The notes under the pieces: generated by a model
Seen by the model: only the letters and a program-made list of their open reading frames with translations
Told to the model about the DNA's origin: nothing
The model's database searches: none
Part shown: positions 27,094 to 46,384 of the stretch, piece after piece
How positions within the stretch are numbered: the first letter of the stretch is position 1
Layout: each line of letters opens with the position of its first letter
Made by a program: the position numbers and the translations under genes
Assembly: GCA_019237325.1 (NCBI GenBank)
Contig: JAFAHI010000613.1
Span: 1-55,996, forward strand
From: Verrucomicrobiota bacterium
Lineage (GTDB): Bacteria > Verrucomicrobiota > Verrucomicrobiia > Chthoniobacterales > JAFAMB01
Reading direction: 5' to 3'
Length of the DNA: 55,996 bases

Positions 27094-27585
27094 ATGCCTC
27101 CAGCCGCGCGAGTCACCGATCCGGTATCGCATCCGCTTCCTCCGGTGTTAAGCCCTGGCCCGGGCAGCCTCAACGTGTTGATTGGGGGCCTGCCTGCGTG
27201 GCGCGGGATTCCGGCCGCAGCGGCAGCCGGTTTGCAGGTAGCCAAACAGGCTTCGGATGCGACGATCAAAACGGCAGAAGCCGCCTCCCTGGCTGCCTCC
27301 GGTACGCCGGGCGCACCTGCTGCCAAGGCAGCCGAGCAAACGACCAAAGCAACCGCCGCTTCAACCATGGGCTCGGCGATTACCTCCGCAGCGGGTGGAG
27401 CGGATATTCATACCTGCACTACGCCCCTGCCGGTGCCGCCACATGGCCCAGGAGTAGTCATTGACGCTTGTCCGACTGTCCTGATTAATAACCTTCCGGC
27501 AGCGCGGATGGGTGACACGATCCTTGAGGCCGTTGGGCCGCCGAACAAAATCGCCATGGGATGTCCGACAGTCATTATTGGGTGA
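27094..27585 (+). CDS. PAAR-domain protein with an Ala-rich insertion
   Basis: It has MPPAARVTDPVSHP, GGLPAWRG and NNLPAARMGD PAAR-type motifs. About 75 aa of Ala/Thr-rich sequence sits between them. A GGGAAG Shine-Dalgarno-like element lies upstream of the ATG at 27094. Confidence 0.85.
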   Translation: MPPAARVTDPVSHPLPPVLSPGPGSLNVLIGGLPAWRGIPAAAAAGLQVAKQASDATIKTAEAASLAASGTPGAPAAKAAEQTTKATAASTMGSAITSAAGGADIHTCTTPLPVPPHGPGVVIDACPTVLINNLPAARMGDTILEAVGPPNKIAMGCPTVIIG

Positions 27586-29954: not shown

Positions 29955-30017
29955 GAAGGGTCTTTGAATACGTTCAACTAACTTCGAGCATTTGATGTCC
30001 GGGGTCTTTTTCGGCGG

Positions 30018-30141
30018 CCGGGAGGGCGCGCGTCCTCGCGCGCCGTGAAGACGTTTCCGACCTTGAGACGTAATTCATCGCTTAACGCTGGAACGTCATC
30101 GCTCCGCAAACAACGGATCGCGAGGACGCGATCCCTCCCGG
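30018..30141. repeat. pair of inverted 29-nt elements (30018-30046 / 30113-30141), each itself an 8-bp/4-nt-loop hairpin, between clpV and vgrG
   Basis: CCGGGAGGGCGCGCGTCCTCGCGCGCCGT versus the reverse complement of ACGGATCGCGAGGACGCGATCCCTCCCGG matches at 25 of 29 positions. The four differences are two compensatory pairs (CG..CG versus AT..AT), which preserve each local stem. Confidence 0.8.
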
Positions 30142-30151
30142 TGTTTGGAAT

Positions 30152-32848
30152 TTACGCATACTCATACGCAAAACTCCCGTCCTTGACGGCAACCTGCACC
30201 TTTTGCGGGCTAGCCCCTTCCATCAGGCGATTGAGGAGCTCGCGGCTAATCTCCGGCAGAAGGGTTTGGGTTAGAATCGCATCGACCATACGGCCGCCGC
30301 TTTCAAGCTCGGTACAGCGGCTCGCGATCAGATCCACTACCGCATCATCGTAGTTTAACGAAATTTCTTGGCCTTCACTAAGCCGCTTTTGCACCCGGCC
30401 CAGTTGCAGGCGGATGATCGATTTTAACATCGCATCACTCAAAGGATAATAAGGAATCACCACTAGACGTCCGAGCAACGCCGCAGGAAAGACTTTGAGG
30501 AGCGGAGGTCGCAGCGCCTTAGCAATCCCTTCCGGAGACGGCATCATATCGGGTTCCTTACATAAATTCATGATCAGATCACTCCCTACATTAGTCGTGA
30601 GCAGAATAATGGTGTTCTTAAAGTCGATCAGCCTGCCTTCGCCATCCTCCATCATGCCTTTGTCGAAGACCTGGAAAAAGATCTCGTGCACATCCGAGTG
30701 CGCTTTTTCGACCTCATCCAATAACACAACGCTGTACGGTCTGCGTCGAACCGCTTCGGTGAGGATACCCCCCTCTCCGTATCCAACGTATCCAGGAGGA
30801 GCGCCCTTTAACGTGGAAACGGTGTGCGCCTCCTGAAATTCACTCATGTTGATGGTGATGATGTTCGTCTCCCCCCCATACAACGTTTCCGCCAGGGAAA
30901 GAGCCGTCTCCGTCTTCCCCACCCCGCTGGGACCGGCTAGCAGAAAAACCCCAATCGGTTTGCTGGGATTATCTAACCCAGCCCGGGAGGTCTGAATCCG
31001 TTTGGCAATGGCTTCCAAACCATGCCGCTGTCCTACTACACGCTTTTCAAGATTGTCCGCCAACGTGAGGACGGCCTGGATTTCATCTTTCACCATGCGC
31101 CCCACCGGGATACCAGTCCAATCCGCTACTACCGAAGCGACGGCTTGTTCGTCTACACTAGGCAGAATAAGCGGTTCCTCACCTTGAATAGCGGTTAGTT
31201 CTTTCTCTAACTCTCTCAGTTTAGTGAGCAAAGCTTCCCGGTCCTTTTTCGGATCCTGGTCCGGCGCCTCACCGCCATTTTTTCCGGAGGCGGCATTTTC
31301 ATTTGTGCTTAACTTTTTCCGCGTTTCCAGAAGTTGATCGACGACTTCCTTTTCTTTTTTGTAAAGATCTTCCAGCTTGGTTAGTCGCTCTTTTTCCGCT
31401 GCCAGCTGGGCATCGACCTCCTCTTTGCGTGCTCCATGATCGATGCCGATAGCAGTCTCTCGCTCGATCATCGCGATCTCGCTTTGCAACGCCGCGATTT
31501 TACGCTGGCTATCTTCGAGAGCGGGCGGCGTGGCGTGCTGACTGATGGCGACCCGGGCGCAGGCCGTATCAATTAAACTGACGGCTTTATCCGGCAACTG
31601 TCTGGACGGAATATAACGATGCGACAAGCGCGCCGCCGCCTCCAGAGCCTCATCGAGCAAATGAACTCCGTGATGCTTTTCCAGAACTGGAGCCAGGCCT
31701 CGAATCATCAGTACCGTCTTCGCTTCATCAGGTTCCTCGACTTTGATCACCTGAAAGCGCCGGGTCAGAGCCGGATCCTTCTCAATATACTTTTTGTATT
31801 CAGCCCAAGTGGTGGCGGCGATGGTCCGCAAGGTACCGCGGGCAAGTGCCGGTTTAAGCAGGTTAGCGGCATCACCCTGACCCGCCGCGCCCCCGGCGCC
31901 AATCAGCGTATGCGCTTCGTCGATGAACAAGATAATGGGCTTCGGGGACGCTTGAACTTCCTCAATAACCTGACGAATTCGATTCTCAAATTCGCCTTTC
32001 ATACTCGCACCAGCTTGGAGAAGGCCAAGATCCAGCGTCCGCAGAACCACCTCTTTCAGCGCCGGTGGAACATCACCCGCTGCAATTCGCAGGGCGAACC
32101 CCTCTACCACCGCAGTCTTACCCACACCGGCTTCACCGGTCAGGATGGGATTGTTTTGCCGCCGCCGCATTAAAATATCGACAATTTGTCGAATCTCTTC
32201 ATCGCGGCCGAGGATCGGATCGATTTCGCCTTTTCGTGCTTTCTCGGTGAGATCGACTGAGTAACGAGCGAGCGCTTCTTGTTTGCCCATCGCCGCCGGA
32301 GCCAGCGCCCCGCTGGTTTCACCTGGAACCGCTCCGGCAGCGCCGGCTTCGTCGGCAGCGCCCAGCGACTCTTCCGGGGAACCCGATAGAATTTTGGAAA
32401 AGTCGTCAGTCAGAGCATCTAGCTTAATCTTGGCGAATTCCTTGGAGAGACTCAGAAAAACGTTTCGCAAGCTTGGCGTCTTCAATAAACCGACCACGAT
32501 GTGACCGGTGCGGACCCGGCGGTCACCGAAGAGCAGCGATCCGAATACCCAACCCCGTTCAACCGCTTCTTCCAGATGGGGAGAAAAGTCGGAAATCGAA
32601 GTGGCACCCCGCGGCAATTTATCCAGAGAGGTCGTTAGGTCGGTCGCCAGTCGAGCGGGATTGAGCTCGAAGAATTTAACGATGCGATGCTGATCCGAAT
32701 CCGTCAGCTGAAAAACTTGATGGAACCAGTGAACCAATTCCACATAAGGGTTACCTCTCATCTTACAAAATATCGTCGCACTCTCGACGGCTTTGTAAGC
32801 AATCGGGTTCAGTTTACCGAACAAAATCGACCTCTTGATTTCAGCCAT
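30152..32848 (-). CDS. clpV: T6SS AAA+ ATPase ClpV (TssH)
   Basis: 898 aa. It has a ClpV-type N-domain, two Walker A motifs ([16 protein letters not shown]) and a middle coiled coil. Confidence 0.93.
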
Positions 32849-32914
32849 AGGTTCTTGGCCCGCGTTGCGGCCTCCGGAAGTTAGATATTACTGTCAGCCG
32901 GTTAACAAAATTGG

Positions 32915-33928
32915 TTAATAATTTTGGGGATCAAAGATAGGATCATCGGCATCCCGATGGAATGGCTGGCTTTTTAGCCAAGTCGTCCAACCGAGCAAAC
33001 CATCTTGTCCCAAGGAAATCGCCGGTACCGCCGGCGCCTTTAGCACACATTGCAGATCCCAGAAGAGTTCCCGATTGATATAATTCAGGACCCAGTCTTT
33101 CAGTTTTTTAAAGTTGTCAGCCGCCGGGACCAGCCGTTTCAAGTCCTCGAGCTCCATTGGGCCCATCCTGATCCGGAATTTAAGTTGCGCCTCATACTTT
33201 TGGGAACCGGCAATCGCATTGACACCCAAGGTTCCCGTCTCGGGTGATTCTCCGAGGCGGCATTGATTTTCTGGGGGGATTTTCATCCAGAACCCGGCGA
33301 ACTCCTGTATCTCCGTGGGCACGCCAAAAAAGTCTCCCAGAATGGCTTCCAGCCCCTCCGCGTTTCGGCTCTGGGCCGCTAAATGGCCTGAGAAATAGAT
33401 TTTCGCGGGATCAGGTACTGTGTCGCGTTCGCGCAAGCCGGGCATGGCGATGCCGAACAAGCTTCCGAAATAGTTGGCGTAACGAGATTCCTCCGGACGA
33501 TCAAAGTCAGCGCTTTTCTGGTTGAGTGCCCAAGCCCGATAAAAGAATGACAACATCCGGTGATGAAAGACATCCATGAACCGGACGAAAGTCGGATCAT
33601 GAGCATTTCGGTACCGGTCCCGCGCGAAGTCGGTCAGATGTTGAGGCAACGGGCCGTTCGGGCCGAACATGCCGAGAAAATTGACGAACAGGCGGAGCCC
33701 CTTTTCTACCTGCTCTGCACCTTCCAAGGTTGACGGCGCAAAAGACAGCGACGGGATTTGGCAGAAACGCAGAAAATCCTCTTCCAGCCGGATCGAGTTC
33801 CCGACTCGTGGTCGATCACGGAATTCTGCCTCCAGCATCCGGACCGCCCGATAAAAATTAAACGCGTACGGATTGGAAGTGATTTCCTCGGCTAGATTAT
33901 CTGACGTTTGCCGATCAGGCTCGGCCAT
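32915..33928 (-). CDS. tssG: T6SS baseplate protein TssG
   Basis: 337 aa with YAFNFYRAVRMLE near the N-terminus. It overlaps the tssF 3' end. Confidence 0.88.
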   Translation of the reverse strand: MAEPDRQTSDNLAEEITSNPYAFNFYRAVRMLEAEFRDRPRVGNSIRLEEDFLRFCQIPSLSFAPSTLEGAEQVEKGLRLFVNFLGMFGPNGPLPQHLTDFARDRYRNAHDPTFVRFMDVFHHRMLSFFYRAWALNQKSADFDRPEESRYANYFGSLFGIAMPGLRERDTVPDPAKIYFSGHLAAQSRNAEGLEAILGDFFGVPTEIQEFAGFWMKIPPENQCRLGESPETGTLGVNAIAGSQKYEAQLKFRIRMGPMELEDLKRLVPAADNFKKLKDWVLNYINRELFWDLQCVLKAPAVPAISLGQDGLLGWTTWLKSQPFHRDADDPIFDPQNY

Positions 33929-35757
33929 CGCATGATCTCCCCTCGACGTTGCGAGACGATGACGGTCTCGGTGAAAGAATTAATGGAAACGTAGCGCGCG
34001 AAAAATTGGGCGAGCACTGCCCCCAGGACAAAGATGCCGCTTCCCTCGAACGCTGACTCATCCATGATTACTTTTATTTCCAGACCACGCGCAAAAGTGA
34101 GAGGGCCGGGAACATCGACTCGGCGGATAATTGGATTCGAGACCGCCGATCGAATGCCATCAATCTGGCGAAGGGTAAATAAGTCGTTCGGGTTGACGTA
34201 AAGCTTGAGCAACTCTCGGAGGGGGGCGGCACCCTCACCGTCCTTGGCATCGAGGAGAGAAAGGTAATTCAAGGACAGATGGCTGATGACGCGCCACGAA
34301 GGATCACCCTGACCAGTCGACGCCACCGGGATCGTCGGGCCAACCAGCCAACGAATCGATGTGACCGGCGCATAAAGCTCGGTGGTCATATCGGTCTCCC
34401 CAATCGAGATCGGCGATTGGAGAGGCAAATGCCGATTGGTGCATAACGCGGTTGAGTTCAGTTGACTCAGACGCCGCGGATAAGGCGCCGACTTTGCATC
34501 CACCAGCGAAATGAAAACTTCGCTGCCCGCATAAGAGGAGACGGCGCCGAATTTCTTTTCTTTTGCGGTCAAAACCCTCGGCGCTCTATGAACGGTGTAA
34601 TACGCCCCCGAGTGATCGCCCTCGCTTCTCGCCCGATAGAATGGCTCGAATCTCTGTTCTTGATTTGAGTCGGCGGTAACACCGGCGACCTCTTCGATCT
34701 GATAAACTTCGAACTCGATCGGACGGGTCCGTTCCGGCACGATATGAAACTCGGAAAAGCGGTCCGAAATTAATATCGGGTCAAGCCGTTTGCGGAACAG
34801 ATTAATTATCGGCGTACAAAACAGCGCAAAAGTGCTGGCATCGATGCGATTGTCGAGTCTCGGTTCGGGAGCGCGCAACGCGATGATAATTTCCAGCCGA
34901 TCCGAGTCGGATCGTTGCACGGCTTGAGTAAGTCCGGTGAGTTCAAAAAAAAGAAACCGCTGCGGACAAGCAAAGTACTCCTTTAGCAACCGGTAACCCT
35001 CAAAGCTCCGTGGTCCGTTCGGGAGGATGGCCTCGTCTTCCTCAAAACCCACTCGCCGAATCGTGGAAGCCGGAAGAATCTCTCGAAACTGACGAGATCC
35101 TTTCGTCGTTTGTAGAATGACGTGCGAAGCTCGCGTGAAGATCTGCTCGTAGATCGAGATGGGAATTTCGTCACTTCCACGAATAAAGATCGGCAGTCGA
35201 TCCAGTTTCAGCTCTTCGAGCTTTCTGCCAGCATTGGTTTGCAGACGGATGAAAATCCCTGCCTTGGCCCCAAGCGCAGCCGGCAGCTCGAGGGCGACGA
35301 TATCACGAGTGTAGTACCTCGATTCAGTAATACGAAGTGGCCAGAGACGAAGATCATGCGAGGTCCGGAATTGGCACCGGGTCTCCTGATCGACACTTCG
35401 AAGCGCAGTTCCGCGCTCGAGCAAAAAACCATCTTCTGGTCCAGGTTCGCGCGGGTCGGGTTCAAAATGGGCTATCCCCATCGCGGGCACCGGAGCCAGG
35501 TAATGCGGATAAACCGTTTCCAGCAGCGTCTGGGTAAATCGGGGAAACTCGGCGTCGAGTTTTAGATGAACGCGCGCCGCCAGAAAAGCGAAGCCTTCCA
35601 GCAAACGTTCGACATAGGGATCCGGACAAATCTCCTTCGCATCACGATCCAAGGCCAAACGGCCGGCGATCTTGGGGAATTCACGAGCGAACTCCCCAGC
35701 CATTTCCCGCAGGTGGCGCAACTCGCTGTTGTAATAGGCCACCAACCGCTCATCCAT
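33892..35757 (-). CDS. tssF: T6SS baseplate protein TssF
   Basis: 621 aa beginning YYNSELRHLREMAGEFAREFPKIAGRL, a typical TssF N-terminus. Confidence 0.9.
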   Translation of the reverse strand: MDERLVAYYNSELRHLREMAGEFAREFPKIAGRLALDRDAKEICPDPYVERLLEGFAFLAARVHLKLDAEFPRFTQTLLETVYPHYLAPVPAMGIAHFEPDPREPGPEDGFLLERGTALRSVDQETRCQFRTSHDLRLWPLRITESRYYTRDIVALELPAALGAKAGIFIRLQTNAGRKLEELKLDRLPIFIRGSDEIPISIYEQIFTRASHVILQTTKGSRQFREILPASTIRRVGFEEDEAILPNGPRSFEGYRLLKEYFACPQRFLFFELTGLTQAVQRSDSDRLEIIIALRAPEPRLDNRIDASTFALFCTPIINLFRKRLDPILISDRFSEFHIVPERTRPIEFEVYQIEEVAGVTADSNQEQRFEPFYRARSEGDHSGAYYTVHRAPRVLTAKEKKFGAVSSYAGSEVFISLVDAKSAPYPRRLSQLNSTALCTNRHLPLQSPISIGETDMTTELYAPVTSIRWLVGPTIPVASTGQGDPSWRVISHLSLNYLSLLDAKDGEGAAPLRELLKLYVNPNDLFTLRQIDGIRSAVSNPIIRRVDVPGPLTFARGLEIKVIMDESAFEGSGIFVLGAVLAQFFARYVSINSFTETVIVSQRRGEIMRWPSLIGKRQII

Positions 35758-36253
35758 AGCCCACCTCTCTGGTACTGGACTCGGATGATTCTAGGTCTAG
35801 CTGCGTCCGAATGAACATTCTCTCCGGAATCGGGTGGACCCAGAGTTCGCCAGTGATATCGAACGATAACAGATTCCGTTCGATCGTCGCCTTGACTTTC
35901 AGCGTCTGGCGATTGATTCGCGGCTCGAAAACCACAATGGCATCAAATAGCTGCCTCTCAATTTCTTCGACATCCGGAGAGAGACGCCCATACAGCTGGC
36001 GAAGACCGAAGTTCAGTACGGAACGGTAAGCCTCCTCAAAATCGGCAAAGGTCAGTTCGCCGACTCGCTCATCGGGATAGTGGCCAATCGCGTTGAACAG
36101 CCAATCCAAATCACGAACCACTCCCGTCTTATAACGTTGGAGAGAAACGATGCGTTGATTTCGAGTCTCTTCCCTCTTGGCCGGTTCATCATCGGTTAGA
36201 CGGTCAAGCAGACAAGGCTGAAGCCGATCGAGCGGTGGGATTGCATCAGCCAT
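35750..36253 (-). CDS. tssE: T6SS baseplate protein TssE (gp25-like); the ORF could extend to 36289
   Basis: It has the LLDRLTDDEP motif and a GPW/gp25-like C-terminal half. The Met at 36253 avoids abutting the tagJ stop. Confidence 0.88.
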   Translation of the reverse strand: MADAIPPLDRLQPCLLDRLTDDEPAKREETRNQRIVSLQRYKTGVVRDLDWLFNAIGHYPDERVGELTFADFEEAYRSVLNFGLRQLYGRLSPDVEEIERQLFDAIVVFEPRINRQTLKVKATIERNLLSFDITGELWVHPIPERMFIRTQLDLESSESSTREVGYG

Positions 36254-36289
36254 GGGAACTATCCAACGAAAAATGAAACCCAGTGCCAA

Positions 36290-37093
36290 TCATTCAGCGC
36301 GCGCAGGCGTGAGCTCGAACTGTCGAACCTCCAACAGTGGATATTCATGCTTATCTGTCGCAAACAAACGTTGGCCAAGACCAAGTTGAATCCCGTTTTG
36401 CTCAAGCCACTCGGTTTTTCGCGCCAGCTTTAACTGATTATCGGTCGAATGCTCTGTGCCGGAATAGCGAGTGGGAATATGGCCCGTCGCCTGACCACCG
36501 TTCTCCCACACAAACTGCGCTGGCGCCCAAACCAGGTCTCGCAAGTCCGTGACCGGCTCTACTAGAATCTGGCGGATGCGACAAAAAGGGACCCAGTAGT
36601 AACGGCCTTCGAGAATCACTTCGAGGACCGGACCAAGCCTTTCGTCGGCATCGGCAATCCATTCAAACGGTTCCCCGTTGACGACGCCACCGCTCATGGG
36701 AGCAGCATCGAACGCCTGATCGCGTAACTCGATGCCTGCCTGAAACTCTCCTTTGCCGAAGAGTTCCATTGCCTGGACTAATCGGCCGATCCATTCCGGT
36801 GGTTCACCAAAAATGATCGGTGTTTGTTTACCGGCAAAAACATCTGCCCGGAACGCTTCGCAAAGGAGGACTGGTTCGAACACTCTGGCTAACATCATGC
36901 TCTCCGAATCCATGTCGGAGAGCACCCGCAGCTGCGTGTTCGCTCGTTGCCAATCGCCCAGCACGCTGAGCAACTGAAAAAGAAAGATCCGGGGTTTTGC
37001 ATTGGCCGGGTCCTCTCGGGCGACATCCTGAATGGTTTTCAGTGCCTCGTCTAGCCTGCCTTCTTTTAGGAAATCCTCCGCGGTCATTGGCAC
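36290..37093 (-). CDS. tagJ: T6SS accessory protein TagJ (ImpE family)
   Basis: 267 aa with an N-terminal TPR-like segment (EDFLKEGRLDEALKTIQDVAREDPANAKPRIFLFQLLSVLGDWQRA). It sits between hcp and tssE, as in H1-type clusters. Confidence 0.85.
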   Translation of the reverse strand: MPMTAEDFLKEGRLDEALKTIQDVAREDPANAKPRIFLFQLLSVLGDWQRANTQLRVLSDMDSESMMLARVFEPVLLCEAFRADVFAGKQTPIIFGEPPEWIGRLVQAMELFGKGEFQAGIELRDQAFDAAPMSGGVVNGEPFEWIADADERLGPVLEVILEGRYYWVPFCRIRQILVEPVTDLRDLVWAPAQFVWENGGQATGHIPTRYSGTEHSTDNQLKLARKTEWLEQNGIQLGLGQRLFATDKHEYPLLEVRQFELTPARAE

Positions 37094-37170
37094 ATCGTCC
37101 TACTGAGCCCGCTTACCGACCAAGCTGCAGCCGGCGAAGCAAAAGCTACGTTACTCTAATGTTGATGGGC

Positions 37171-37192
37171 TGCGGCCGGCGCGCCGGCCGCA
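37171..37192 (-). terminator. 22-nt perfect GC-rich palindrome 19 nt downstream of the hcp stop (terminator/attenuator-like hairpin)
   Basis: TGCGGCCGGCGCGCCGGCCGCA is its own reverse complement. There is no clean U-tract on the minus strand, so it may be a processing or stabilising hairpin rather than a full terminator. Confidence 0.45.
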
Positions 37193-37210
37193 CCATTTTA
37201 AAAGACGCTT

Positions 37211-37696
37211 CTAGTTCGCCGCATTTCCGGCGATATCCCAAGCGGCATTGATTGCCGTGCCGGCCGACCCGTCATCCTGTTGTGGCGTATAGTCCAGGCT
37301 AAACTTACCGAAATTCAGGGTGACATTTTCGGTTAAACGGTCTTCACCGCCGGAGCCTCCCGTTGAAATCCCGGCGATCAGCACCTCGTCCATCGTGATC
37401 TTAATGTATTCGATCGGCGACTTACCGCCCGCCTTGCGTATGGTGAGTAACACCTGAGCGTAATGCGAACCGTTGCAACAGGCCAACATCAGTTTCGGCG
37501 ACGCGGAGTCCACCCATTTGGTGAGGCTGATATCCTGCACATTCACCTTGCCACTGCCGGCTCCTCCGCCAACATGCGCTGAGCCGGAATTGCTCATTCC
37601 CCAGGACCACGATAGTACGTCAATCTCCTTGGTGTGGACCTTATCTTTCGACTCACCGTCTACCCCCTGTATCTTCAAAAACATGTCGACTGCCAT
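37211..37696 (-). CDS. hcp: T6SS tube protein Hcp (TssD)
   Basis: 161 aa beginning MAVDMFLKIQGVDGESKDKVHTKEIDVLSWSWGMSN, the canonical Hcp N-terminus. Confidence 0.95.
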   Translation of the reverse strand: MAVDMFLKIQGVDGESKDKVHTKEIDVLSWSWGMSNSGSAHVGGGAGSGKVNVQDISLTKWVDSASPKLMLACCNGSHYAQVLLTIRKAGGKSPIEYIKITMDEVLIAGISTGGSGGEDRLTENVTLNFGKFSLDYTPQQDDGSAGTAINAAWDIAGNAAN

Positions 37697-37834
37697 AATC
37701 TTCGGTTACCGTTGTATTGATGAAAGCGCCGTTGGTTTTCAGTTTTCGATATGCCGATTCCGCATCAGTCGAAGGTTCCCCTGTGGCGCCTTCAGGGAGC
37801 TACGGCCGATCCGGAGTCACTTACTAAGGGAAAC

Positions 37835-39334
37835 TCACTTACCTTTTATCGCAGGCAGCTTTGAAACTAGCCGCAAGGAAACGGTTAATCCTTCCAGTTG
37901 GAAATGAGGCCGCAAATAGAACCTGGACGTGTAGTAGCCAGGATTGCCTTCGACTTCCTGCACTTCGACAGAAGCGTCTGCCAATGGGCGTAGCGCTTTC
38001 TGGGTCTCTGACGCTGTACTACCATCGACACAGAATTTTTTGATCCAATCGTTTAACCAACGTTCCATATCGGCCCGCTCTTTAAATGATCCGATCTTAT
38101 CGCGCACCATGCATTTGAGATAGTGCGCAAACCGGCAGGTCGCAAATAAGTAAGGCAATCTGGCAGCCAGATTAGCGTTAGCGGTGGCGTCTGGATCGTC
38201 GTAGACGGCAGGTTTTTGCAGTGACTGCGCACCGATAAAAACCGCGTAATCCGAGTTTTTATAGTGCGAAAGAGGCATGAACCCATTCTTGGCCAGCTCT
38301 GCTTCGCGACGGTCAGTAATCGCGATTTCAGTCGGACATTTCATGTCCACCCCACCGTCGTCAGTTGGGAAGGTATGAACCGGAAGGCCTTCGAGCATCC
38401 CGCCGCTCTCGGTTCCACGGATTTGGGCGCACCAACCGTACAGCTTGAAAGCCCGGGTAATATTCGTGCCCATCGCATAGGCCGAGTTCGACCAGGTGTA
38501 TTTATTATGGTCGGCGCCTTCGGTGTCTTCCTCGAACGCGAACTCTTCCACCGGCGAAGTCCTAACGCCGTACGGTAGGCGCGAAAGAAAGCGCGGCATG
38601 GCCAGACCGATATACCTGGAATCTTCCGAATCTCTCAGAGACCTCCAAGGCGCGTACTCCGGAGTCTGGAAAATTTTTGTCAGATCGCGCGGATCACTTA
38701 GTTCGCGCCACGAATCCATGTTCAGAACGGTCGGCCCAGCGCCGGCGATGAACGGGGCATGGGCGGCCGCCGCGATTTGGGCCATACTTCCCAACAATTC
38801 CACGTCCGGGGGGCTGTGGTCGAAGTAGTAATCGCCGATTAGAGCCCCATACGGTTGTCCACCGGGAGAGCCATACTCGTCCTCGTAAATCTTTTTGAAA
38901 ATTGGACTCTGGTCCCAGGCCGTCCCTTTGTATTTCTTCAAGGTCTTGCCTAGTTCCTGCTTGCCAACATTCAAGACTCGGATCTTCAGCATCTCATCCG
39001 TCTCAGTGTTGTTCACCAAGTGATAGAGACCGCGCCAAGTACCTTCCAATTTTCTGAAGTCGTCGTGATGAATAATCCGATTAACCTGCTCGCTGAGCTT
39101 GCGATCCAGTTCGCCGACCAATGATTCAATGGTCAAAAGCACGTCATCCGAAACCAACGACGTGGAGCCGAGCGCTTGTTCTGCCAGCGTTCTGACCGCT
39201 TCTTGAACCGCCGTCTTTGCTTCATCGGTCTTCGGCCGAAATTCTTTGTTAAGCAGCGCGTCGAATTCGCTGGGCTCGAACGCGGCAGCGGTCGTTGCCG
39301 ATTCCGATTGTGTCTGTGGATTCTCTTGAGCCAT
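37835..39334 (-). CDS. tssC: T6SS contractile sheath large subunit TssC
   Basis: 499 aa and conserved throughout (e.g. PFVMGVM-type partner upstream, RFAHYLKCMVRDKIGSF). Confidence 0.95.
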   Translation of the reverse strand: MAQENPQTQSESATTAAAFEPSEFDALLNKEFRPKTDEAKTAVQEAVRTLAEQALGSTSLVSDDVLLTIESLVGELDRKLSEQVNRIIHHDDFRKLEGTWRGLYHLVNNTETDEMLKIRVLNVGKQELGKTLKKYKGTAWDQSPIFKKIYEDEYGSPGGQPYGALIGDYYFDHSPPDVELLGSMAQIAAAAHAPFIAGAGPTVLNMDSWRELSDPRDLTKIFQTPEYAPWRSLRDSEDSRYIGLAMPRFLSRLPYGVRTSPVEEFAFEEDTEGADHNKYTWSNSAYAMGTNITRAFKLYGWCAQIRGTESGGMLEGLPVHTFPTDDGGVDMKCPTEIAITDRREAELAKNGFMPLSHYKNSDYAVFIGAQSLQKPAVYDDPDATANANLAARLPYLFATCRFAHYLKCMVRDKIGSFKERADMERWLNDWIKKFCVDGSTASETQKALRPLADASVEVQEVEGNPGYYTSRFYLRPHFQLEGLTVSLRLVSKLPAIKGK

Positions 39335-39345
39335 AGGGGGTTACC

Positions 39346-39870
39346 TTAAGAAGCCGTGTCGGCTGGTTTTGTCTCCTCAGGTTTAGGGGCCGATGCCAAA
39401 GCAGTTAACAACGCCGGGTCTCCGAGGATCTTACGGATAAGCTCTTCGGCGCCGACTTTGCCATCCATATAAGTAAGCAGGTTCGAAAGTTGATTGCGGG
39501 CCGTAAGTAGCTGGTTCAGCGATTCAACTTTCTGGGCAACCGCACCGGGCGAGAAATCGTCCAAGCTCTCAAAGGTCAGATCGACACTCAGGTTCCCTTC
39601 GCCAGTGAGGGTGTTCGGAACGCTGAAAGCGACTCGCGGCTTCGCCGCCTTTAGCCGGTCGTTGAAATTATCGATATCGATTTCCAAGAACTTACGCTCC
39701 GCTACGGGAGCCAGCGGATCCGCGGGCTTACCGGAAAGATCCGCCATCACGCCCATCACGAAAGGCAACTCGACTTTTTTCTGCGCTCCATAGACCTCTA
39801 CGTCGTATTCGATCTGGACGCGCGGCGCCCGGTTCCGGGCGATGAATTTTTGGCTGCTCGCTTTTGCCAT
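39346..39870 (-). CDS. tssB: T6SS contractile sheath small subunit TssB
   Basis: 174 aa with RVQIEYDVEVYGAQKKVELPFVMGVMADLSG. Confidence 0.95.
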   Translation of the reverse strand: MAKASSQKFIARNRAPRVQIEYDVEVYGAQKKVELPFVMGVMADLSGKPADPLAPVAERKFLEIDIDNFNDRLKAAKPRVAFSVPNTLTGEGNLSVDLTFESLDDFSPGAVAQKVESLNQLLTARNQLSNLLTYMDGKVGAEELIRKILGDPALLTALASAPKPEETKPADTAS

Positions 39871-40190
39871 TGGCTTGTTCCTTAATCAGTTTTTTCCGTT
39901 GAAGGTTGCTGCACCAAGGACTCTGGTGGCGAAAGCGCTCGCAATTAAATGCTGGGGAGAACGGAACCGTGTCAAAAACCGATTAGGTCGTGTCGCGCGG
40001 TAGGGCGACGTGTCACCGAAATATCGTCCAAAACCGATTCCCTTCATTCAACTGGGTTGGTTGCTCGCAAAACTCCAAGTAGATTTCGATAACGTCAGAA
40101 ATTACAAAAATTGTCAATCGGTATCCTACGAATTCCGGCCCTTTAATCCGAAATTAAAATCCGGAGCACTGCGCGCTCCTTGATGTCCTA

Positions 40191-41225
40191 TCAGCCACCT
40201 TGTTCCTCTTTTTCGCCAGAGATCCTGTAAATCTCGGTAATCGCGTCCGGTGCGATATCTTTTATGATCTGAAGGAAATCCATTTCCGCCAGTCGCAACG
40301 CGCGTTTGAGGATAAGGGGCACAGGACTGGACGGTTCAGCGCGCGCGTAGTAGTCGCAGATTTTGTGCAACAATCTTACGACATCCTCCCGAGAACGGAG
40401 CTCTCCCTGTCTCGACGCCGGTGCCGCGTCCTCGACATGGCCAGATCCGGGCACAGCTTCCTCCGCGGTCAGGAGGCTCGCAGCCGGCACGTACGGCTCG
40501 ACGCGTTTCCGCATGGCAGTCAGTTCTACCGATAAAGGAGTGAGATCGGGCGCTTTATCTGCACCAACCGTTTGGGTGAGGAACTGATCAACGGACTCTA
40601 CTAATGTAACGCTCTCGCTGAGAACCCGATAGGTCTCGGCTAACTCATCCTTGTTTGAATCGCGAAATGCAGCTTCGATCCGGGCGAGATTAGGTCCGGA
40701 ATCATCGGTCTTGCCACCGGCAGCCGTTTCGGCGCGAAGAATATCTGAAAGGCTGTAACGGCCCATCTGCAAAGAGTTACAAAGAGGCGCGTCGTGCAGG
40801 CGCTCGATCACGCGTAGCTGGTCGCCAAAGCTCCCGATTGGCATCGCCATCGAAGCAACGACGTTCATTCTTTCAAGAGGATCGTTGCCGTCAGACGGAT
40901 CAAGCTGGGGATGAAAGTTTGGCCAGTATCTTTCTACCAACCCCTTCAGTACTGCGAGGGTCTCTCGAAAAGCCGGCAAACCCTCTAACTCGAGCTCTGC
41001 CACCGATAGAGTCACTGCAATGCGTAAGTCTTTGGACCGGGCGAACAGCTCTAGGCAAGCGGAGCGGACTGCCTTCCAGTCCGGAGGTTTTGCCTCTGAG
41101 AATTGGGTTTCAGGCGTACCGCGCGCCATAGTTTCCAATGCCTGGAAACCCGTGTCATAAGATAAATCCTCCCCGCATGGAGCTTCCTCGGAGACCGGCT
41201 TGAGCAACTCTTCTGCGACAATCAT
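40191..41225 (-). CDS. tssA: T6SS protein TssA (ImpA N-terminal domain)
   Basis: 344 aa with the LLKPVSEEAPCGEDLSYDTGFQALE ImpA_N signature. Confidence 0.85.
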   Translation of the reverse strand: MIVAEELLKPVSEEAPCGEDLSYDTGFQALETMARGTPETQFSEAKPPDWKAVRSACLELFARSKDLRIAVTLSVAELELEGLPAFRETLAVLKGLVERYWPNFHPQLDPSDGNDPLERMNVVASMAMPIGSFGDQLRVIERLHDAPLCNSLQMGRYSLSDILRAETAAGGKTDDSGPNLARIEAAFRDSNKDELAETYRVLSESVTLVESVDQFLTQTVGADKAPDLTPLSVELTAMRKRVEPYVPAASLLTAEEAVPGSGHVEDAAPASRQGELRSREDVVRLLHKICDYYARAEPSSPVPLILKRALRLAEMDFLQIIKDIAPDAITEIYRISGEKEEQGG

Positions 41226-41295: not shown

Positions 41296-42882
41296 TTGAC
41301 CGGTATGTCGGCTGATCATGTTAGCACAGCTTACGACCGGGTATTGTATCCAAGCAGCACCTTTCCCGAGACTCACCCCAATCGACTTGCCACCGTCGCG
41401 TATCTTCGGGGACTGCAACCAGCTCCGGTCAATGGCTGCCGCGTTTTAGAACTGGGCTGCGGCGCAGGCGGTAATCTGATACCCATGGCGTTCCATCTGC
41501 CGGACAGTGAGTTTGTGGGCCTGGATTTGGCGCAGCGCCCTATCGCCTCAGGCCAGAGTTTTGCCGCTAAGCTCGGTTTGTCCAACCTCACCCTGCGCTC
41601 GATGGATCTGCGCGAAGCGCGTGTCGATGAACTGGGCCATTTCGACTTCATCATCGCCCATGGAGTCTATTCCTGGGTCCCGCAACCAGTGCGGGAGCGC
41701 ATTTTGGGTATTTGCCAGGACATGCTAAACCCGCAAGGCGTCGCCTACATCAGCTATAACGCTTACCCCGGAAGTCATTTTCGAGATCTCGCTCGCGGCA
41801 TGATGCGTTTTCATGTGTCTGCTTTTGAGAGTTTTGAGGACAAGCTTGGCCAGGCCAGGGGCCTTCTCAAATTTATCTCTGAGTCCAGAATGAAGCCCGA
41901 TTATTACGTAGAAGCGATTCGCGCGGAATTCGGGCGCGTCTCGAAATACATCGACGCAGCCTTTTTTCATGATGATTTGAACGAAGTCAATCAACCCTTC
42001 TATCTGTATGAATTCATCGCCGACGCGAAGCGGTACAGATTGCAATTTGTGGGAGAGGCTACCGCTAGCGATTTGAATCTTGAGAAATTAACCCCTGAAG
42101 CGACGAAGAAGATGGCCGAACTCGAAGCGGGGGATGCCGTGATCTTCGAACAATTTAAAGACTTTCTGGTTGCCACCGGTTTTCGACGAACACTCCTTTG
42201 CCGGGCAGAGATCGACCTGGCGCCCGACTTAGTCCTTGAAAGGGTGCGACAGCTTTACTTAATGTCCGACGCCGTCCGGGTCGAAGGAACTGGAACCGGG
42301 GACTCCAACCACCTCTTTCGACGGCCGCGCGGCGACGAGGTCGCAACCACAGATCCGCTGTTTGCGGCGGCTCTCGATTTTCTGTCGGCAGAGTATCCCC
42401 GGAGTGTCTCTTTTGAAAAACTAGTCCAGGCGGCCCGGGCTGCTGCCGGCTCCCAATCGGAAACCCGTAGCGCCGCCGATTCTACGGGCGCGTTGGAGGA
42501 AGCCCTATTGAAGGCGTACCACGCCGGCTTCCTTTTTTTAAATGCTTACCAGCCGGAAGTCGTCAACCAGGTTACGGAACGCCCCGCCACCAGCAAACTA
42601 GCGAGGTTTCAGCTGGCCCGAGGCAATTTTGCGACTAGCCAGCTTCATGTTTCTCATGAGTTTCCGGATCCATTCGCTCGCCAGCTAGTAGTGCTGTTAG
42701 ATGGTACCCGCGATCAGGCGGCCTTGACGCGCGACCTGATTGAATTCGCGAAATCGACTGGAGACCCAATTTACGAAAATGGTGTTCGCGTGACAAATTC
42801 GGATGAACTCCCCCATGCGATCGGACGGCGACTTCCGCCAGCGCTGGCGTCACTGGCTCGCGCCGGAATGTTAGTGGGGTAG
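41296..42882 (+). CDS. class I SAM-dependent methyltransferase with C-terminal methyltransferase-regulatory domain (an ATG at 41305 is the more likely start)
   Basis: It has YDRVLYPSSTFPETHPNRLA, VLELGCGAGGNLIPMA, FDFIIAHGVYSWVP and GVAYISYNAYPG, the typical layout of the MethyTransf_Reg family. Confidence 0.85.
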   Translation: MTGMSADHVSTAYDRVLYPSSTFPETHPNRLATVAYLRGLQPAPVNGCRVLELGCGAGGNLIPMAFHLPDSEFVGLDLAQRPIASGQSFAAKLGLSNLTLRSMDLREARVDELGHFDFIIAHGVYSWVPQPVRERILGICQDMLNPQGVAYISYNAYPGSHFRDLARGMMRFHVSAFESFEDKLGQARGLLKFISESRMKPDYYVEAIRAEFGRVSKYIDAAFFHDDLNEVNQPFYLYEFIADAKRYRLQFVGEATASDLNLEKLTPEATKKMAELEAGDAVIFEQFKDFLVATGFRRTLLCRAEIDLAPDLVLERVRQLYLMSDAVRVEGTGTGDSNHLFRRPRGDEVATTDPLFAAALDFLSAEYPRSVSFEKLVQAARAAAGSQSETRSAADSTGALEEALLKAYHAGFLFLNAYQPEVVNQVTERPATSKLARFQLARGNFATSQLHVSHEFPDPFARQLVVLLDGTRDQAALTRDLIEFAKSTGDPIYENGVRVTNSDELPHAIGRRLPPALASLARAGMLVG

Positions 42883-43126
42883 GTGATAGGCGATAAGCTC
42901 AGCGAGCAATCCGTAGATGAGCTGCTGAATTTACCTGACGTTCATCTGCAACGCTTTGGTGATCCTTTAACATGGTCCACAACGGCTTTTGCCCTATAAC
43001 ATGGTAGTATTTCCGCGAACAAGCTAAGGCGTGCCGGCTATCCTGACCGAAGAAGATCTCATGCAGCCGGAAGCGCTTCTGAAGCAAATCAGGGGGCTGG
43101 TTGGTAGTTACCCGTCTGTGTGGTCA

Positions 43127-45412
43127 TCAAGCCCGCTCTTTCCGAGCAAGCAGCCAACTGGAAACCGCAAAACCACCCAACGTCCACAAAATAAGCGATA
43201 GATACGCGACCCAAAGCGGCCGCTTCTCTGTGTAGATGGCGCCGTTGAGAAGCCGTTGCTTGGTGATGGATCGGTACCAGTTGTTGATATTTGAGTAGGG
43301 AGTTAGATAATTGGTGATTAGATCGCCGGTAATTTTCTGATCGATCAGAAAACTAACATCCGCAACCCGTTCGGAAGCAAAACTCGGCATGATCTGGCTC
43401 ACCCATAAGATGGGCGGCGACATCATATAGGCGGGGGGGCTAAAGCCAGAAAATACAATCTGGGGGATTAGGAACAAAGGGACCAGCATGACAGCTTGGA
43501 TCGCCGATCTAGCGAAAGTCGAAATTGTTAAGCCGATTCCTGTTGAGGCAAACGCCAATAAAATCAACCCGAGCACTTGCCACTGCCAAGCGCCGTGAAC
43601 CCCCAAGTGGATGACGAAGATCACCACAAACAATAGCAGTGATTGGAAAGTTGTAAGACCGCCCATCCAAAGGAACTTGCTTGCCAGATAGCTCCAGCGG
43701 CTCAACCCCACTAACCGCTCCCGGCGATAGATGGGTAACTCTCGAACGATCTCTTGCGCTGAATTACTCGAGCCGAACCAAAGAGTCGCGATATAAGTAT
43801 AGAATTGCGTCAGTGGAGCATCGTTAGTCGCGAAGGCAACCAAAACACCGATAATCATCGGTTGAGCCAGAAGCATGATCGGGTTCTTAATATCCGCGCG
43901 AAATATTGCGATTTGACGTTCTAACAAAATCGGAAGAGACAACGCTTTCTTCGGTCGGGGCGGAGGCTCGACCTCCGGCTTGCTCCGCTCGATTTCAGGC
44001 GGTAACGATGCCTGAAAATTGGGGAGCGACTGCGGTTCACGCGTTTGGAGCGCTCCGTACAGACCCGTGAGCCGGGAGACACCAAATGCGGCGCGCGCTT
44101 CCTCGGGTAGCCCTTCAAATAAAACTCGACCGTAAGAGACGATGGCCACTTGGTCCATCAGATACACGTTTTCCATCACATGCGTCGTGCAGATCACGGT
44201 ACAACCGTTGTCGGCAAGACGGCGCAACAGCTCCATCACTTTAAATTCAGCGAGCGGATCGAGCCCGGATGTGGGTTCATCTAAAAACAAAATTGGAGGC
44301 CGGCTGAGTAATTCAACTCCAACACTGACCCTTTTTCGTTGGCCGCCTGACAGACGGTCCACCTTCGCGTTTGCCCGGTCAGAAAGTCCCAGATTGGAGA
44401 TAGTCTGATTTACTAATTTCGCGATTTCCCGTCGTGGCGTCCCGGCCGGCAAACGGAGACGCGCCGCGAAGGTCAGCGCTTGGGAAATAGTAAGATCAGC
44501 ATGTACAATGTCATCCTGAGGAACGTAACCAAAAAGCGAGCGAAGCCGATCGAGGTTTGCGTAAAAATCGGTTTGATCGATCAAGATTTTCCCGCCGTCG
44601 GCGGGCTTGAGGCCGCTCAGGGCGTTAAGCAGCGTCGTTTTTCCCGCGCCGCTCGGACCAAGAATTCCGATGAATTGACCCGGCGCGGCGACAAAGCTCG
44701 CTTGCCGCAGAATCGGACCGCTCTCACCTTCCTTGGTCAAATCCACCGCAACGATGCGGCCCACTGAGACGCGCGGAACCCGTCGGCAGTTCTTCCCATC
44801 ATAAAGGAAGCAGAAAGATCCCAGCTGGATCTGGTCGCCAATGACCAGATCATGTTCTACAAAACGCCGGCCGTTAACAAACGCCCCGGTTTTGCTATTG
44901 AGATCAAACAGCCGAAACCCGTCCGGCCCAAGTTCGATCTTTGCATGCCGGCGCGAAACGCTCGGATCATTCAGATCGATGTCGACTTCGTCGCCGCGAC
45001 CGAAAACCAGATTCGCTTTCAGCGGAATGAGATCCACCGATTCACCCTGATAGCGAATGGCGCCCACCGGAGGAGCGGCATCCCAAATGGCTGAACGTTC
45101 TTCGCTGCTGACTCCGAAAGCCACCGTCACCGGCCCGATCCGGATTTGGTCGCCAGGCCGAAGGGTCACGCGACTCGAAAGGCGGTTTCCGTTTACAACC
45201 GTGCCGCGCCGGCTTTCAAGATCTTCAATAAACCATTCGTCACCTTCTCGCGAAAGCCGGCAATGACGTCGCGAGACTTCCGGATGGTTCAGAACCAAAT
45301 CGACGTCTGCGGCGCGACCAACAATAATATTATCCGTGGAAAAGGTCTCTGAGCGTAAAGGAAGACCAGAAACAACCGCGATCTGTATACTTTTCACGGC
45401 AGCCCGGCCCAT
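43127..45412 (-). CDS. FHA-FHA-ABC transporter fusion (two FHA domains, ATPase, ABC-2-type six-TM permease)
   Basis: FHA1 reads IIVGRAADVDLVLNHPEVSRRHCRL...GTVVNG and FHA2 reads LVFGRGDEVDIDLNDPSVSRRHAKI...GAFVNG. It has Walker A (GPSGAGKT), the ABC signature (LSGGQRKR), Walker B (ILFLDEPTSGLD) and a hydrophobic C-terminal roughly 260 aa. Confidence 0.9.
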   Translation of the reverse strand: MGRAAVKSIQIAVVSGLPLRSETFSTDNIIVGRAADVDLVLNHPEVSRRHCRLSREGDEWFIEDLESRRGTVVNGNRLSSRVTLRPGDQIRIGPVTVAFGVSSEERSAIWDAAPPVGAIRYQGESVDLIPLKANLVFGRGDEVDIDLNDPSVSRRHAKIELGPDGFRLFDLNSKTGAFVNGRRFVEHDLVIGDQIQLGSFCFLYDGKNCRRVPRVSVGRIVAVDLTKEGESGPILRQASFVAAPGQFIGILGPSGAGKTTLLNALSGLKPADGGKILIDQTDFYANLDRLRSLFGYVPQDDIVHADLTISQALTFAARLRLPAGTPRREIAKLVNQTISNLGLSDRANAKVDRLSGGQRKRVSVGVELLSRPPILFLDEPTSGLDPLAEFKVMELLRRLADNGCTVICTTHVMENVYLMDQVAIVSYGRVLFEGLPEEARAAFGVSRLTGLYGALQTREPQSLPNFQASLPPEIERSKPEVEPPPRPKKALSLPILLERQIAIFRADIKNPIMLLAQPMIIGVLVAFATNDAPLTQFYTYIATLWFGSSNSAQEIVRELPIYRRERLVGLSRWSYLASKFLWMGGLTTFQSLLLFVVIFVIHLGVHGAWQWQVLGLILLAFASTGIGLTISTFARSAIQAVMLVPLFLIPQIVFSGFSPPAYMMSPPILWVSQIMPSFASERVADVSFLIDQKITGDLITNYLTPYSNINNWYRSITKQRLLNGAIYTEKRPLWVAYLSLILWTLGGFAVSSWLLARKERA

Positions 45413-46251
45413 ACCTCGACCGTTCGATTCCTAGCCAGACCGTGTGGGTCGAATAGATCGGTTCCACCCATCGGAATCGCGTAGACCGTATTCACTACGC
45501 CACATTTGTCGCGCAGGATTTCTACGACCGCATCGGCACGCTCTTTGGAAAGCGTAAAATTTTTCTGGTCTTCACCCTGTCGGTCTGCGTACCCAAGCAC
45601 GGCCAGAATGATTCTTGGCTCTTGTAACAGTTTCCTAGCCTCTGGCGTGCTAAGTTGTGCCACGATCGACGCTACGCTTTCCGAAGGCACTGATGTGGCC
45701 GTGGGAAATGAAACCACCGCAATTCTGCCCATCGCTTTGGCGCTTTCCACGGCATTGTAAATCGTGTCCTTCTGGACTTGAGTAAGCGAAGGCTGGAGTT
45801 CGATCCGCTGGGCAATGGCGCGCTTGACTTCTTCGAGGCCTTCTCCTGTTAAGTCCAGATTGATCGGGGTGCCGGAACCCGTCGGTGTCGGCGAAGCGGC
45901 AGTTGCGGCTGGCGTTGGGGTCTCCACCGGAGTCGGTGTTGACGTCGGTGTCGGTGTTGGGGTCGGAGTCGGACTTTGCACCGGAGTCGGTGTTGACGAC
46001 ACGATGAGCACGCGGCCTGACGGAGCCCGCATTAAGGTCCATACGATGGCGCCGATAGCGAGTAGCAAAACCACCGCTACACCGGCGATAAGAAAGGTTG
46101 CCAATGAAGAATCCTTCTTCCGGCCGACAGGCTCCAATGGAGAACCGCATTCCGGGCAGCGAAATTCCTTGGTAACAACATTAATCTGTTCGTTGCGATA
46201 GGCTAGCTTACAACCCGAATAGTTAGTGCATTTACCGATGCGTTTAGCCAT
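45394..46251 (-). CDS. Zn-ribbon / TM / Pro-Thr linker / OmpA-like peptidoglycan-binding protein (T6SS-associated anchor candidate)
   Basis: It has CTNYSGC...CPECG, a TM helix (LATFLIAGVAVVLLLAIGAIVW), a (TP)n linker and a C-terminal OmpA/MotB-like segment (ILAVLGYADRQGEDQKNFTLSKERADAVVEIL...NRTVEVW). Its 3' end overlaps the FHA-ABC start by 19 nt. Confidence 0.8.
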   Translation of the reverse strand: MAKRIGKCTNYSGCKLAYRNEQINVVTKEFRCPECGSPLEPVGRKKDSSLATFLIAGVAVVLLLAIGAIVWTLMRAPSGRVLIVSSTPTPVQSPTPTPTPTPTSTPTPVETPTPAATAASPTPTGSGTPINLDLTGEGLEEVKRAIAQRIELQPSLTQVQKDTIYNAVESAKAMGRIAVVSFPTATSVPSESVASIVAQLSTPEARKLLQEPRIILAVLGYADRQGEDQKNFTLSKERADAVVEILRDKCGVVNTVYAIPMGGTDLFDPHGLARNRTVEVWAGLP

Positions 46252-46357
46252 AAGAAAGCAGCGTCCTAGTGAAGGGTTCTACAAAAGTTGAAGCGTGAAA
46301 ACTAGTAACAATCGCTAGAATTGTCACTGAGATTGCGATCGCTTTTCTGCGGGTCAT
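46244..46357 (-). CDS. possible 37-codon small membrane/signal-anchor ORF (not in the ORF track)
   Basis: MTRRKAIAISVTILAIVTSFHASTFVEPFTRTLLSYG. Its TAA stop overlaps the ATG of the next gene (ATGGCTAA). The ribosome-binding site is weak. Confidence 0.25.
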   Translation of the reverse strand: MTRRKAIAISVTILAIVTSFHASTFVEPFTRTLLSYG

Positions 46358-46384
46358 GATGTTCGAGCCGCCGTTTTCTAACTC

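Follow-up and report, generated by a model that had tools for sequence, protein, structure and literature searches.

An FHA-ABC exporter gene embedded in the type VI secretion locus of soil Chthoniobacterales and its putative cognate receptor kinase

The window analyzed here is the whole of a 55,996-nucleotide (nt) stretch of a Verrucomicrobiota assembly (GCA_019237325.1, contig JAFAHI010000613.1, Chthoniobacterales), and it carries a type VI secretion system (T6SS) locus. Within this locus lies a gene whose product joins two FHA domains, an ABC ATPase and an ABC-2 type permease; it is referred to below as FHA-ABC. The gene and its surroundings were compared with related loci (designated by L numbers), and it was tentatively concluded that FHA-ABC is a kinase-gated envelope exporter captured by the T6SS locus. 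The gene and the domains of its product (aa, amino acids; TM, transmembrane) were located as follows.

43127-45412, minus strand: FHA-FHA-ABC ATPase-ABC-2 permease gene, 761 aa, with Pfam and NCBIfam matches and hydrophobic segments at aa 508-751
45113-45340, minus strand: FHA domain 1, about aa 25-100 (Pfam FHA aa 29-93), with G32 R33 / S47 R48 R49 H50 / T71 N74
44798-45025, minus strand: FHA domain 2, about aa 130-205, with G138 R139 / S153 R154 H156 / S173 N180
44093-44710, minus strand: ABC ATPase, about aa 235-440 (PF00005 aa 235-382), with Walker A GPSGAGKT, Q-loop VPQDD, signature LSGGQ, Walker B LFLDEPTSGLD and H-loop TTH
43133-43930, minus strand: ABC-2 type permease, about aa 495-760, with PF01061 (aa 495-677), PF12698, PF12679 and TM segments

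The presence of all these domains in one polypeptide, which a first-pass annotation had read from the letters alone, was confirmed by Pfam (two FHA domains, E 1.2e-40; ABC_tran, E 5.2e-28; ABC2_membrane, E 5.4e-18); the identical protein at NCBI is named 'FHA domain-containing protein [Verrucomicrobia bacterium]'. Both FHA domains were likewise found to be complete, and the phosphothreonine (pThr)-binding residues of their GR...SRRH...NG signatures were invariant in an alignment of 23 homologs. The domains were of the ordinary bacterial type, with structure-database matches to GarA, OdhI and EmbR and also to FHA-1 and FHA-2 of Rv1747, and no further FHA domain was detected in any frame of the window. 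All the ATPase motifs were intact in the window protein and in 42 relatives, and the closest solved nucleotide-binding domains (NBDs) were those of ABCA and ABCG lipid transporters. Judged from its sequence, FHA-ABC would be a half-size ABC-2 exporter, presumably a homodimer, with two pThr-binding FHA domains on a cytoplasmic N-terminus.

Translation may start at ATG 45412 (761 aa) or at GTG 45397 (756 aa), and the latter was favoured by the NCBI annotation of the metagenome-assembled genome (MAG) and by the length of most homologs (753-756 aa). The 19-nt overlap with the preceding gene, c14, that had been noted at first holds if ATG is used and is reduced to 4 nt (GTGA) with GTG; it was not conserved in relatives, the two genes being separated by 50 nt in L003 and by 6 nt in L067. 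A scan of 42700-47500 for sigma-70 promoters and terminators recovered none on the minus strand in the gap between TagF and c14 or 3' of FHA-ABC, a result that is uninformative for a verrucomicrobium.

The surrounding T6SS locus and the genes at its far side comprise the following features.

47332-54261, minus strand: membrane-complex and baseplate operon with c17 (53329-54261), TssK (51952-53310), TssL (51238-51939) and TssM (47332-51081)
46385-47335, minus strand: TagF, overlapping the end of TssM by 4 nt and separated from c14 by 133 nt
45394-46251, minus strand: c14, with a cytoplasmic Zn-ribbon (C8/C14/C32/C35), one TM segment (aa 52-70), a Pro/Thr-rich linker and a periplasmic OmpA-like domain
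41296-42882, plus strand: methyltransferase resembling protein lysine methyltransferases (PKMT-like), convergent with FHA-ABC and kept in the locus, with Pfam MethyTransf_Reg and PKMT C-terminal domains
27690-41225, minus strand: T6SS core genes TssA, TssB, TssC, Hcp, ImpE/TagJ, TssE, TssF, TssG, ClpV and VgrG, by profile matches
18125-21958, plus strand: PATR autotransporter, 3' of the kinase in the window and in sister loci
13952-17341, plus strand: receptor Ser/Thr kinase, 1129 aa, with a kinase domain (aa 22-270), a TM segment (aa 629-647) and periplasmic PEGA and Sel1 repeats
11912-13915, plus strand: o11912, 667 aa, no family match, directly 5' of the kinase in the window, L124 and L125

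The genes read c17-TssK-TssL-TssM-TagF-c14-FHA-ABC on the minus strand, followed by the methyltransferase on the plus strand and by TssA to VgrG on the minus strand; FHA-ABC is placed between the membrane-complex and TagF genes and the TssA-BC genes. The order X-tssK-tssL-tssM-tagF-(ZnR/OmpA)-(FHA-FHA-ABC) proposed at first reading was correct, X being c17. The sequence match of TagF was weak (TIGR03373, E 0.003), and the assignment was supported by matches of 15 of 26 homologs to Pfam TagF_N. An AlphaFold2 model of the protein (pLDDT 78, pTM 0.84) gave as best Foldseek matches in the PDB the TagF proteins of A. baylyi (9t0n, E 6.9e-9, TM-score 0.55) and P. aeruginosa (6iz8, E 1e-4), and the predicted structure confirms the gene as TagF. 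The OmpA match of c14 was below the Pfam cut-off (25.9 against 27.2 bits), and its TIGR03350 match was below the cut-off of that model (17 against 139.8 bits); TssL of the window is without an OmpA-like domain.

The locus was surveyed from two sides. A scan for FHA-ABC in one genome per species recovered 47 Verrucomicrobiota loci, which were classed by tblastn with all window proteins and by clustering of their open reading frames (ORFs). T6SS genes adjoined FHA-ABC in the order of the window only in the closest group (L005, L006, L031 and the metagenome contigs L003 and L004). About 30 Chthoniobacterales species carried FHA-ABC copies of 55-70% identity in a housekeeping block (UvrA-like, GT9, adh_short / FHA-ABC / FHA-cyclase, PALP, ThiS) with no T6SS gene within 10 kb, and these copies kept all motifs and identical FHA residues. 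Hence, the transporter has a job that is independent of the T6SS, and the idea of a T6SS-specific gene had to be abandoned, the older neighbours of FHA-ABC being the OmpA-like gene and a kinase. It was also observed, at L002 (12410-13342) and about 30 related loci (cluster c1), that the housekeeping copies are convergent with a gene for an FHA-guanylate/adenylate cyclase; this suggests that Thr phosphorylation in those genomes has another output that is read by FHA domains.

The older arrangement was seen in the distant copies (38-49% identical), which have c14 directly upstream. Directly 5' of FHA-ABC, c14 was found with no T6SS near in L037, L039, L041, L043, L045, L046, L048, L050 and L051, and a co-oriented Sel1-repeat Ser/Thr kinase lies directly 3' of FHA-ABC in L039, L044 and L046, where L044 begins inside FHA-ABC. 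The surroundings of L039 are of the housekeeping kind (LpxC-FabZ, pseudouridine synthase, sucCD, citrate synthase). On this comparative evidence, c14-FHA-ABC-kinase is judged to be an older module that predates the T6SS link.

In a neighbor-joining tree, all T6SS-linked copies (67-91% identical to that of the window) formed one clade together with L009 and L022, and its sister was the main clade of copies in housekeeping context. The arrangement was altered 3' of FHA-ABC in L031, overall in L124/L073, and differently in the T6SS-linked L009 (TssB <> o11912-FHA-ABC < methyltransferase). DATHPI01 was the only MAG with both a housekeeping-context copy (L016) and a copy of the T6SS-linked clade (L022), a count to be read with MAG incompleteness and possible mixing of bins in mind. 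No contig carrying both a housekeeping FHA-ABC and a clade-2 T6SS (defined below) was present among the matches listed.

Further, the survey was repeated from the T6SS side by scanning metagenomes with a TagF alignment, which recovered 64 loci, again classed by tblastn. The TagF homologs split into clade 1 (60-100% identical) and its sister, clade 2 (43-50%). The order TagF-c14-FHA-ABC was found in 19 clade-1 contigs (14 contigs, L004, L005, L006, L031 and the window), with two exceptions among the contigs reaching far enough. A frameshifted FHA-ABC remnant of about 56 aa lay between c14 and the methyltransferase in L072, and in L083 c14 was followed by unrelated ORFs and FHA-ABC was absent; TssM-TagF-c14 was kept in both. 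None of the 27 informative clade-2 contigs (TagF 43-48% identical) had FHA-ABC nearby or any other detectable FHA gene within 10 kb. There, TagF was followed by a gene of about 260 aa in 14 contigs, by the kinase in eight and by TssA-TssB-TssC in five; the 260-aa gene was in turn followed by the kinase or the methyltransferase where the contig reached far enough. Its product (260-289 aa; L058, 11040-11822; L059, 11127-11996) has no family match and no TM segment, and when it stands between TagF and the kinase, as in many clade-2 loci, it fills the slot taken by c14-FHA-ABC in clade 1. The two surveys together answer the neighbourhood question raised at the outset in part: the linkage beside TagF is real in the 19 clade-1 contigs, and it is missing from the 27 informative clade-2 contigs and from the roughly 30 species with the housekeeping context.

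The sequence comparisons indicate that, of the c14-FHA-ABC-kinase module, clade-2 T6SS loci contain only the kinase and clade-1 loci contain all three genes. Three T6SS arrangements of the kinase were recorded: that of the window, TagF-(x260)-kinase-autotransporter (L058, L059, L085, L087, L096 and others) and o11912-kinase-autotransporter-TssA-B-C (L124). The last was found on a 129-kb clade-1 contig, where o11912-kinase-autotransporter is directly 5' of TssA-B-C-Hcp-E-F (L124) and the c17-TssKLM-TagF-c14-FHA-ABC block (L073) lies about 20 kb beyond. The clade-2 kinases directly after TagF were 80-82% identical to the window kinase in the kinase domain and 55-57% over the full length, and the autotransporters after clade-2 kinases were 46-50% identical to the PATR autotransporter of the window. 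The kinases directly 3' of FHA-ABC in L039 and L046 were 66-68% identical to the window kinase in the kinase domain, and both these and the clade-2 kinases directly after TagF are taken as its orthologs. On this evidence the receptor kinase is a constant member of the locus of this T6SS family, and the gene at 13952-17341 is assigned to the same locus, at its far edge. The premise of the first-pass annotation that the cluster has no kinase was therefore wrong and applies only to the contiguous core genes at 27690-54261. From the same comparisons we infer that this is the cognate kinase of FHA-ABC.

Kinases about 9 kb from housekeeping copies (L015, L016, L033) were first taken as the same kinase and were rejected as other paralogs at 54-57% kinase-domain identity. 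The cytoplasmic part of the window kinase at aa ~310-560 resembles a second, degenerate kinase-like domain, and the stretch just before the membrane, aa 560-628 with the letters PTATS...STTTSE, is rich in Thr and Ser and could supply FHA docking sites. A third companion of the module is o11912, which is directly 5' of FHA-ABC in L009 (373-2319) and has a copy at 7496-9469 in L124.

In the clade-1 lineage L065-L069, FHA-ABC is followed by co-directional, overlapping genes for STAS(MlaB)-MlaE-MlaF-MlaD and a GAF-SpoIIE(PP2C)-HATPase protein (L067, 14237-19007), and the same arrangement is expected across the lineage. Genes for phospholipid transport and for a phosphatase thus lie 3' of the exporter gene there. 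Judged by sequence, the Mla genes fit an envelope-lipid theme.

Several other genes of the locus were characterized. The first gene of the membrane-complex operon, c17, was kept in both T6SS clades (59-76% identical), and it had no Pfam or NCBIfam match and no TM segment. No TssJ lipoprotein was recognized anywhere in the locus. A Thr near the N-terminus of TssL, like Thr14 of Agrobacterium, was sought, and only T2 was present, which is uninformative. The window ORFs scanned gave no PP2C or SpoIIE match, in agreement with the first reading of a cluster lacking a phosphatase, and no FGE-sulfatase or TagQ-like match; equivalents of TagQ and TagR were not recognized. The PKMT-like methyltransferase is a conserved internal gene of the clade-1 T6SS locus and of some clade-2 loci (L090, L093), and the PATR autotransporter was found in the same loci. 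Rickettsial PKMTs methylate the autotransporter OmpB, and by analogy the two proteins may be an enzyme-substrate pair. The interval from the autotransporter to VgrG (22074-27585) contains a GNAT acetyltransferase gene (25183-25758) and several small ORFs without family matches, which may be effector, immunity or adaptor genes; homologs of one of them (26931-27368) adjoin FHA-ABC in L006, L022, L031 and L073.

We propose that FHA-ABC is a kinase-gated envelope exporter module which was captured, and is co-regulated, by the Chthoniobacterales T6SS locus and shares its kinase; this is held tentatively, at somewhat under an even chance. By analogy, FHA-ABC and the kinase would work like the PknF/Rv1747 pair of M. 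tuberculosis. The single-pass receptor kinase would sense an envelope or cell-contact cue and become Thr-phosphorylated. The FHA domains of the exporter would then bind the kinase in its phosphorylated form, or a different phosphoprotein, and the transporter would be switched or clustered as a result. A substrate of the envelope lipid or glycolipid type would probably be moved together with the constant partner c14, which is predicted to be an inner-membrane protein with a peptidoglycan-binding OmpA-like domain. The c14-FHA-ABC-kinase module would have been taken into the T6SS locus in soil Chthoniobacterales, so that exporter and T6SS would share one kinase input and the exporter may be co-regulated with firing. 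This proposal was ranked first because the transporter is intact, the same residues occur in many non-T6SS relatives, the exporter was lost twice without loss of T6SS genes, and Mla genes are present in one lineage.

Several points weigh against the proposal. The two FHA domains are separated by 30 aa lacking Thr (aa 101-130) in the window protein and by 26-45 aa in 42 relatives, whereas the disordered phospho-acceptor linker of Rv1747 is about 150 aa long (PMC7761784); the self-phosphorylated linker mechanism of Rv1747 therefore cannot apply as such. The window kinase is about 26 kb from FHA-ABC and on the opposite strand. The full-length AlphaFold2 model of FHA-ABC was set aside (pLDDT 54.9, below 50 in the ATPase region), and the fold class rests on sequence profiles. 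Additionally, if the FHA domains serve the T6SS directly, one would expect what is seen: TagF is present, 19 contigs strictly keep the order TagF-c14-FHA-ABC, and FHA-ABC is the sole FHA protein of the window.

That second possibility, in which FHA-ABC substitutes for Fha1/TagH, was considered somewhat unlikely. It supposes that the locus kinase phosphorylates Thr on itself or on TssL, TssM or c17, and that FHA-ABC reads this pThr and nucleates or licenses T6SS assembly at the membrane, TagF opposing it by binding the FHA module and the ABC part being a membrane anchor or a second sensing input. Besides the three expectations just named, it draws on the constancy of the receptor kinase in the locus, on the single tree clade that holds all T6SS-linked copies and on a T6SS link that outlasts rearrangements (L009, L031, L124/L073). 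The structure-supported TagF is relevant here, as TagF represses by direct binding of Fha in Agrobacterium and Pseudomonas (PMC5995506). However, clade 2 has the kinase with no FHA gene near it in any of the 27 contigs, and TagF leads straight to TssA in five of them. Acinetobacter has TagF and is not known to have an Fha; the presence of TagF is therefore no proof of an Fha partner. FHA-ABC was lost in L072 and is absent from L083 with the T6SS genes intact, and the identical FHA residues of the non-T6SS copies leave no sequence mark of T6SS specialization. The TagH model TIGR03354 scored 73.6 bits against a cut-off of 120.25 and was matched only at positions 19-111 of 420, the FHA part, and all the ATPase motifs are preserved, for which a pure scaffold would have no use. 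In a bolder form, which we regard as rather unlikely, the soluble Fha1 has been replaced by a membrane transporter, assembly being licensed where the phosphorylated, FHA-tethered exporter sits, with TagF as antagonist and with envelope transport or damage sensing and firing combined in one device.

The third explanation takes c14-FHA-ABC as a passive neighbour, a housekeeping envelope module beside which a T6SS island happened to be built up or to insert in a single ancestor, the gene order being synteny inherited by close relatives with no functional tie. The T6SS link is limited to one monophyletic group and may reflect one event; most members of the FHA-ABC family are elsewhere in the genome, and the two losses left the neighbouring T6SS genes in place. 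Of the five GTDB genomes that carry a copy of the T6SS-linked clade, four had no second copy, a weak count since MAGs are incomplete; the T6SS-linked-clade copy is then probably the sole one and must also do the housekeeping job. However, the module lies between two T6SS gene blocks and not at an edge in the window and L003-L005, o11912, the methyltransferase and the autotransporter travel with it across rearrangements, and the even GC content across the region gives no sign of a recent unrelated insertion. This explanation was judged improbable and the least likely of the three because the ancestral partner kinase of the module has an independent T6SS link, seen in the sister clade and across three arrangements.

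The locus represents a T6SS family of uncultured soil Verrucomicrobia with a PEGA/Sel1 receptor kinase, in one clade of which the sole FHA reader of the locus is fused to an ABC exporter. The secretion locus appears to have captured a pre-existing signalling module piecewise, the kinase in one clade and the kinase with the reader in another. Participation of the exporter in firing control would mean that a membrane transporter can serve as the base of a pThr checkpoint and that T6SS activity is coupled to the handling of envelope lipids. Without such participation, the locus still provides a clear PknF/Rv1747-like pair of kinase and transporter in a diderm phylum.

To our knowledge, post-translational control of the T6SS has been described in a few Proteobacteria, and in all of these cases a soluble Fha/TagH protein reads the pThr. 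Like the PpkA-PppA-Fha1/TagH pathway, the present locus has a receptor Ser/Thr kinase, an FHA-domain protein and TagF. It differs in that its FHA reader lies outside the TagH family and forms one polypeptide with an ABC exporter, that no PP2C counterpart of PppA was found among the window ORFs scanned, and that clade 2 has the kinase without any FHA gene nearby. The ectodomain of PpkA is of the vWA type, whereas that of the window kinase consists of PEGA and Sel1 repeats. As to the different wiring of the Thr-phosphorylation checkpoint that had been suggested, the locus pairs a kinase with an FHA reader as usual, the reader being fused to a transporter.

The position of FHA-ABC had also been equated with that of TagT/TagS in the P. 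aeruginosa H1-T6SS cluster. The likeness is positional: an ABC ATPase and a permease are encoded in the T6SS cluster in both cases. TagT/TagS is a LolD/LolE-like (COG1136/COG4591) two-protein system, with a separate permease of the FtsX type, working with TagQ/TagR, whereas the permease of the window is of the ABC-2 type (PF01061) and is fused to the ATPase and the FHA domains. In published models, TagT/TagS are placed upstream of kinase signalling (PMC13584744); FHA-ABC, having FHA domains, would act downstream of the kinase. In its inner-membrane anchor, its periplasmic OmpA-like domain and its gene position next to TssL/TssM, c14 resembles TagL/TagN/TagP, but it has an N-terminal cytoplasmic Zn-ribbon and partners FHA-ABC where no T6SS is near. 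A 2026 review of T6SS accessory factors gives TagH/Fha and the LolCDE-like TagTS and no FHA-ABC fusion. In the journals covered, which are not all journals, no paper was found on a T6SS in Chthoniobacterales or on an FHA-ABC fusion as a T6SS component; the first-pass annotation likewise knew of no description of the fusion in that role.

The closest known counterpart in domain architecture is, as had been recognized, Rv1747 of M. tuberculosis, an FHA-FHA-NBD-TM domain protein that is phosphorylated by PknF from its own operon and is linked to the export of lipooligosaccharide and phosphatidylinositol mannosides (PMC7761784). Both proteins hold the FHA domains, the ABC ATPase and the ABC-2 type permease in one polypeptide (PMC7761784), the FHA domains of the window protein match the PDB chains of Rv1747 FHA-1 (E 5.5e-5) and FHA-2 (E 2.5e-5), and in the older Verrucomicrobia arrangement a Hanks-type kinase gene adjoins the transporter, as with PknF. 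The resemblance may, nevertheless, be a convergent domain fusion. Unlike PknF, the kinase of the window locus is a large receptor with periplasmic repeats; unlike Rv1747, FHA-ABC has the extra constant partner c14, belongs to a diderm host and in clade 1 sits in a T6SS locus. As far as the sequences indicate, the locus joins Rv1747/PknF-type signalling to a T6SS phosphorylation circuit, a combination seen only in uncultured soil bacteria. Both the exporter and its kinase partner predate the T6SS locus that captured them, so the arrangement probably represents a familiar signalling theme wired in a new way rather than a new type of machine.

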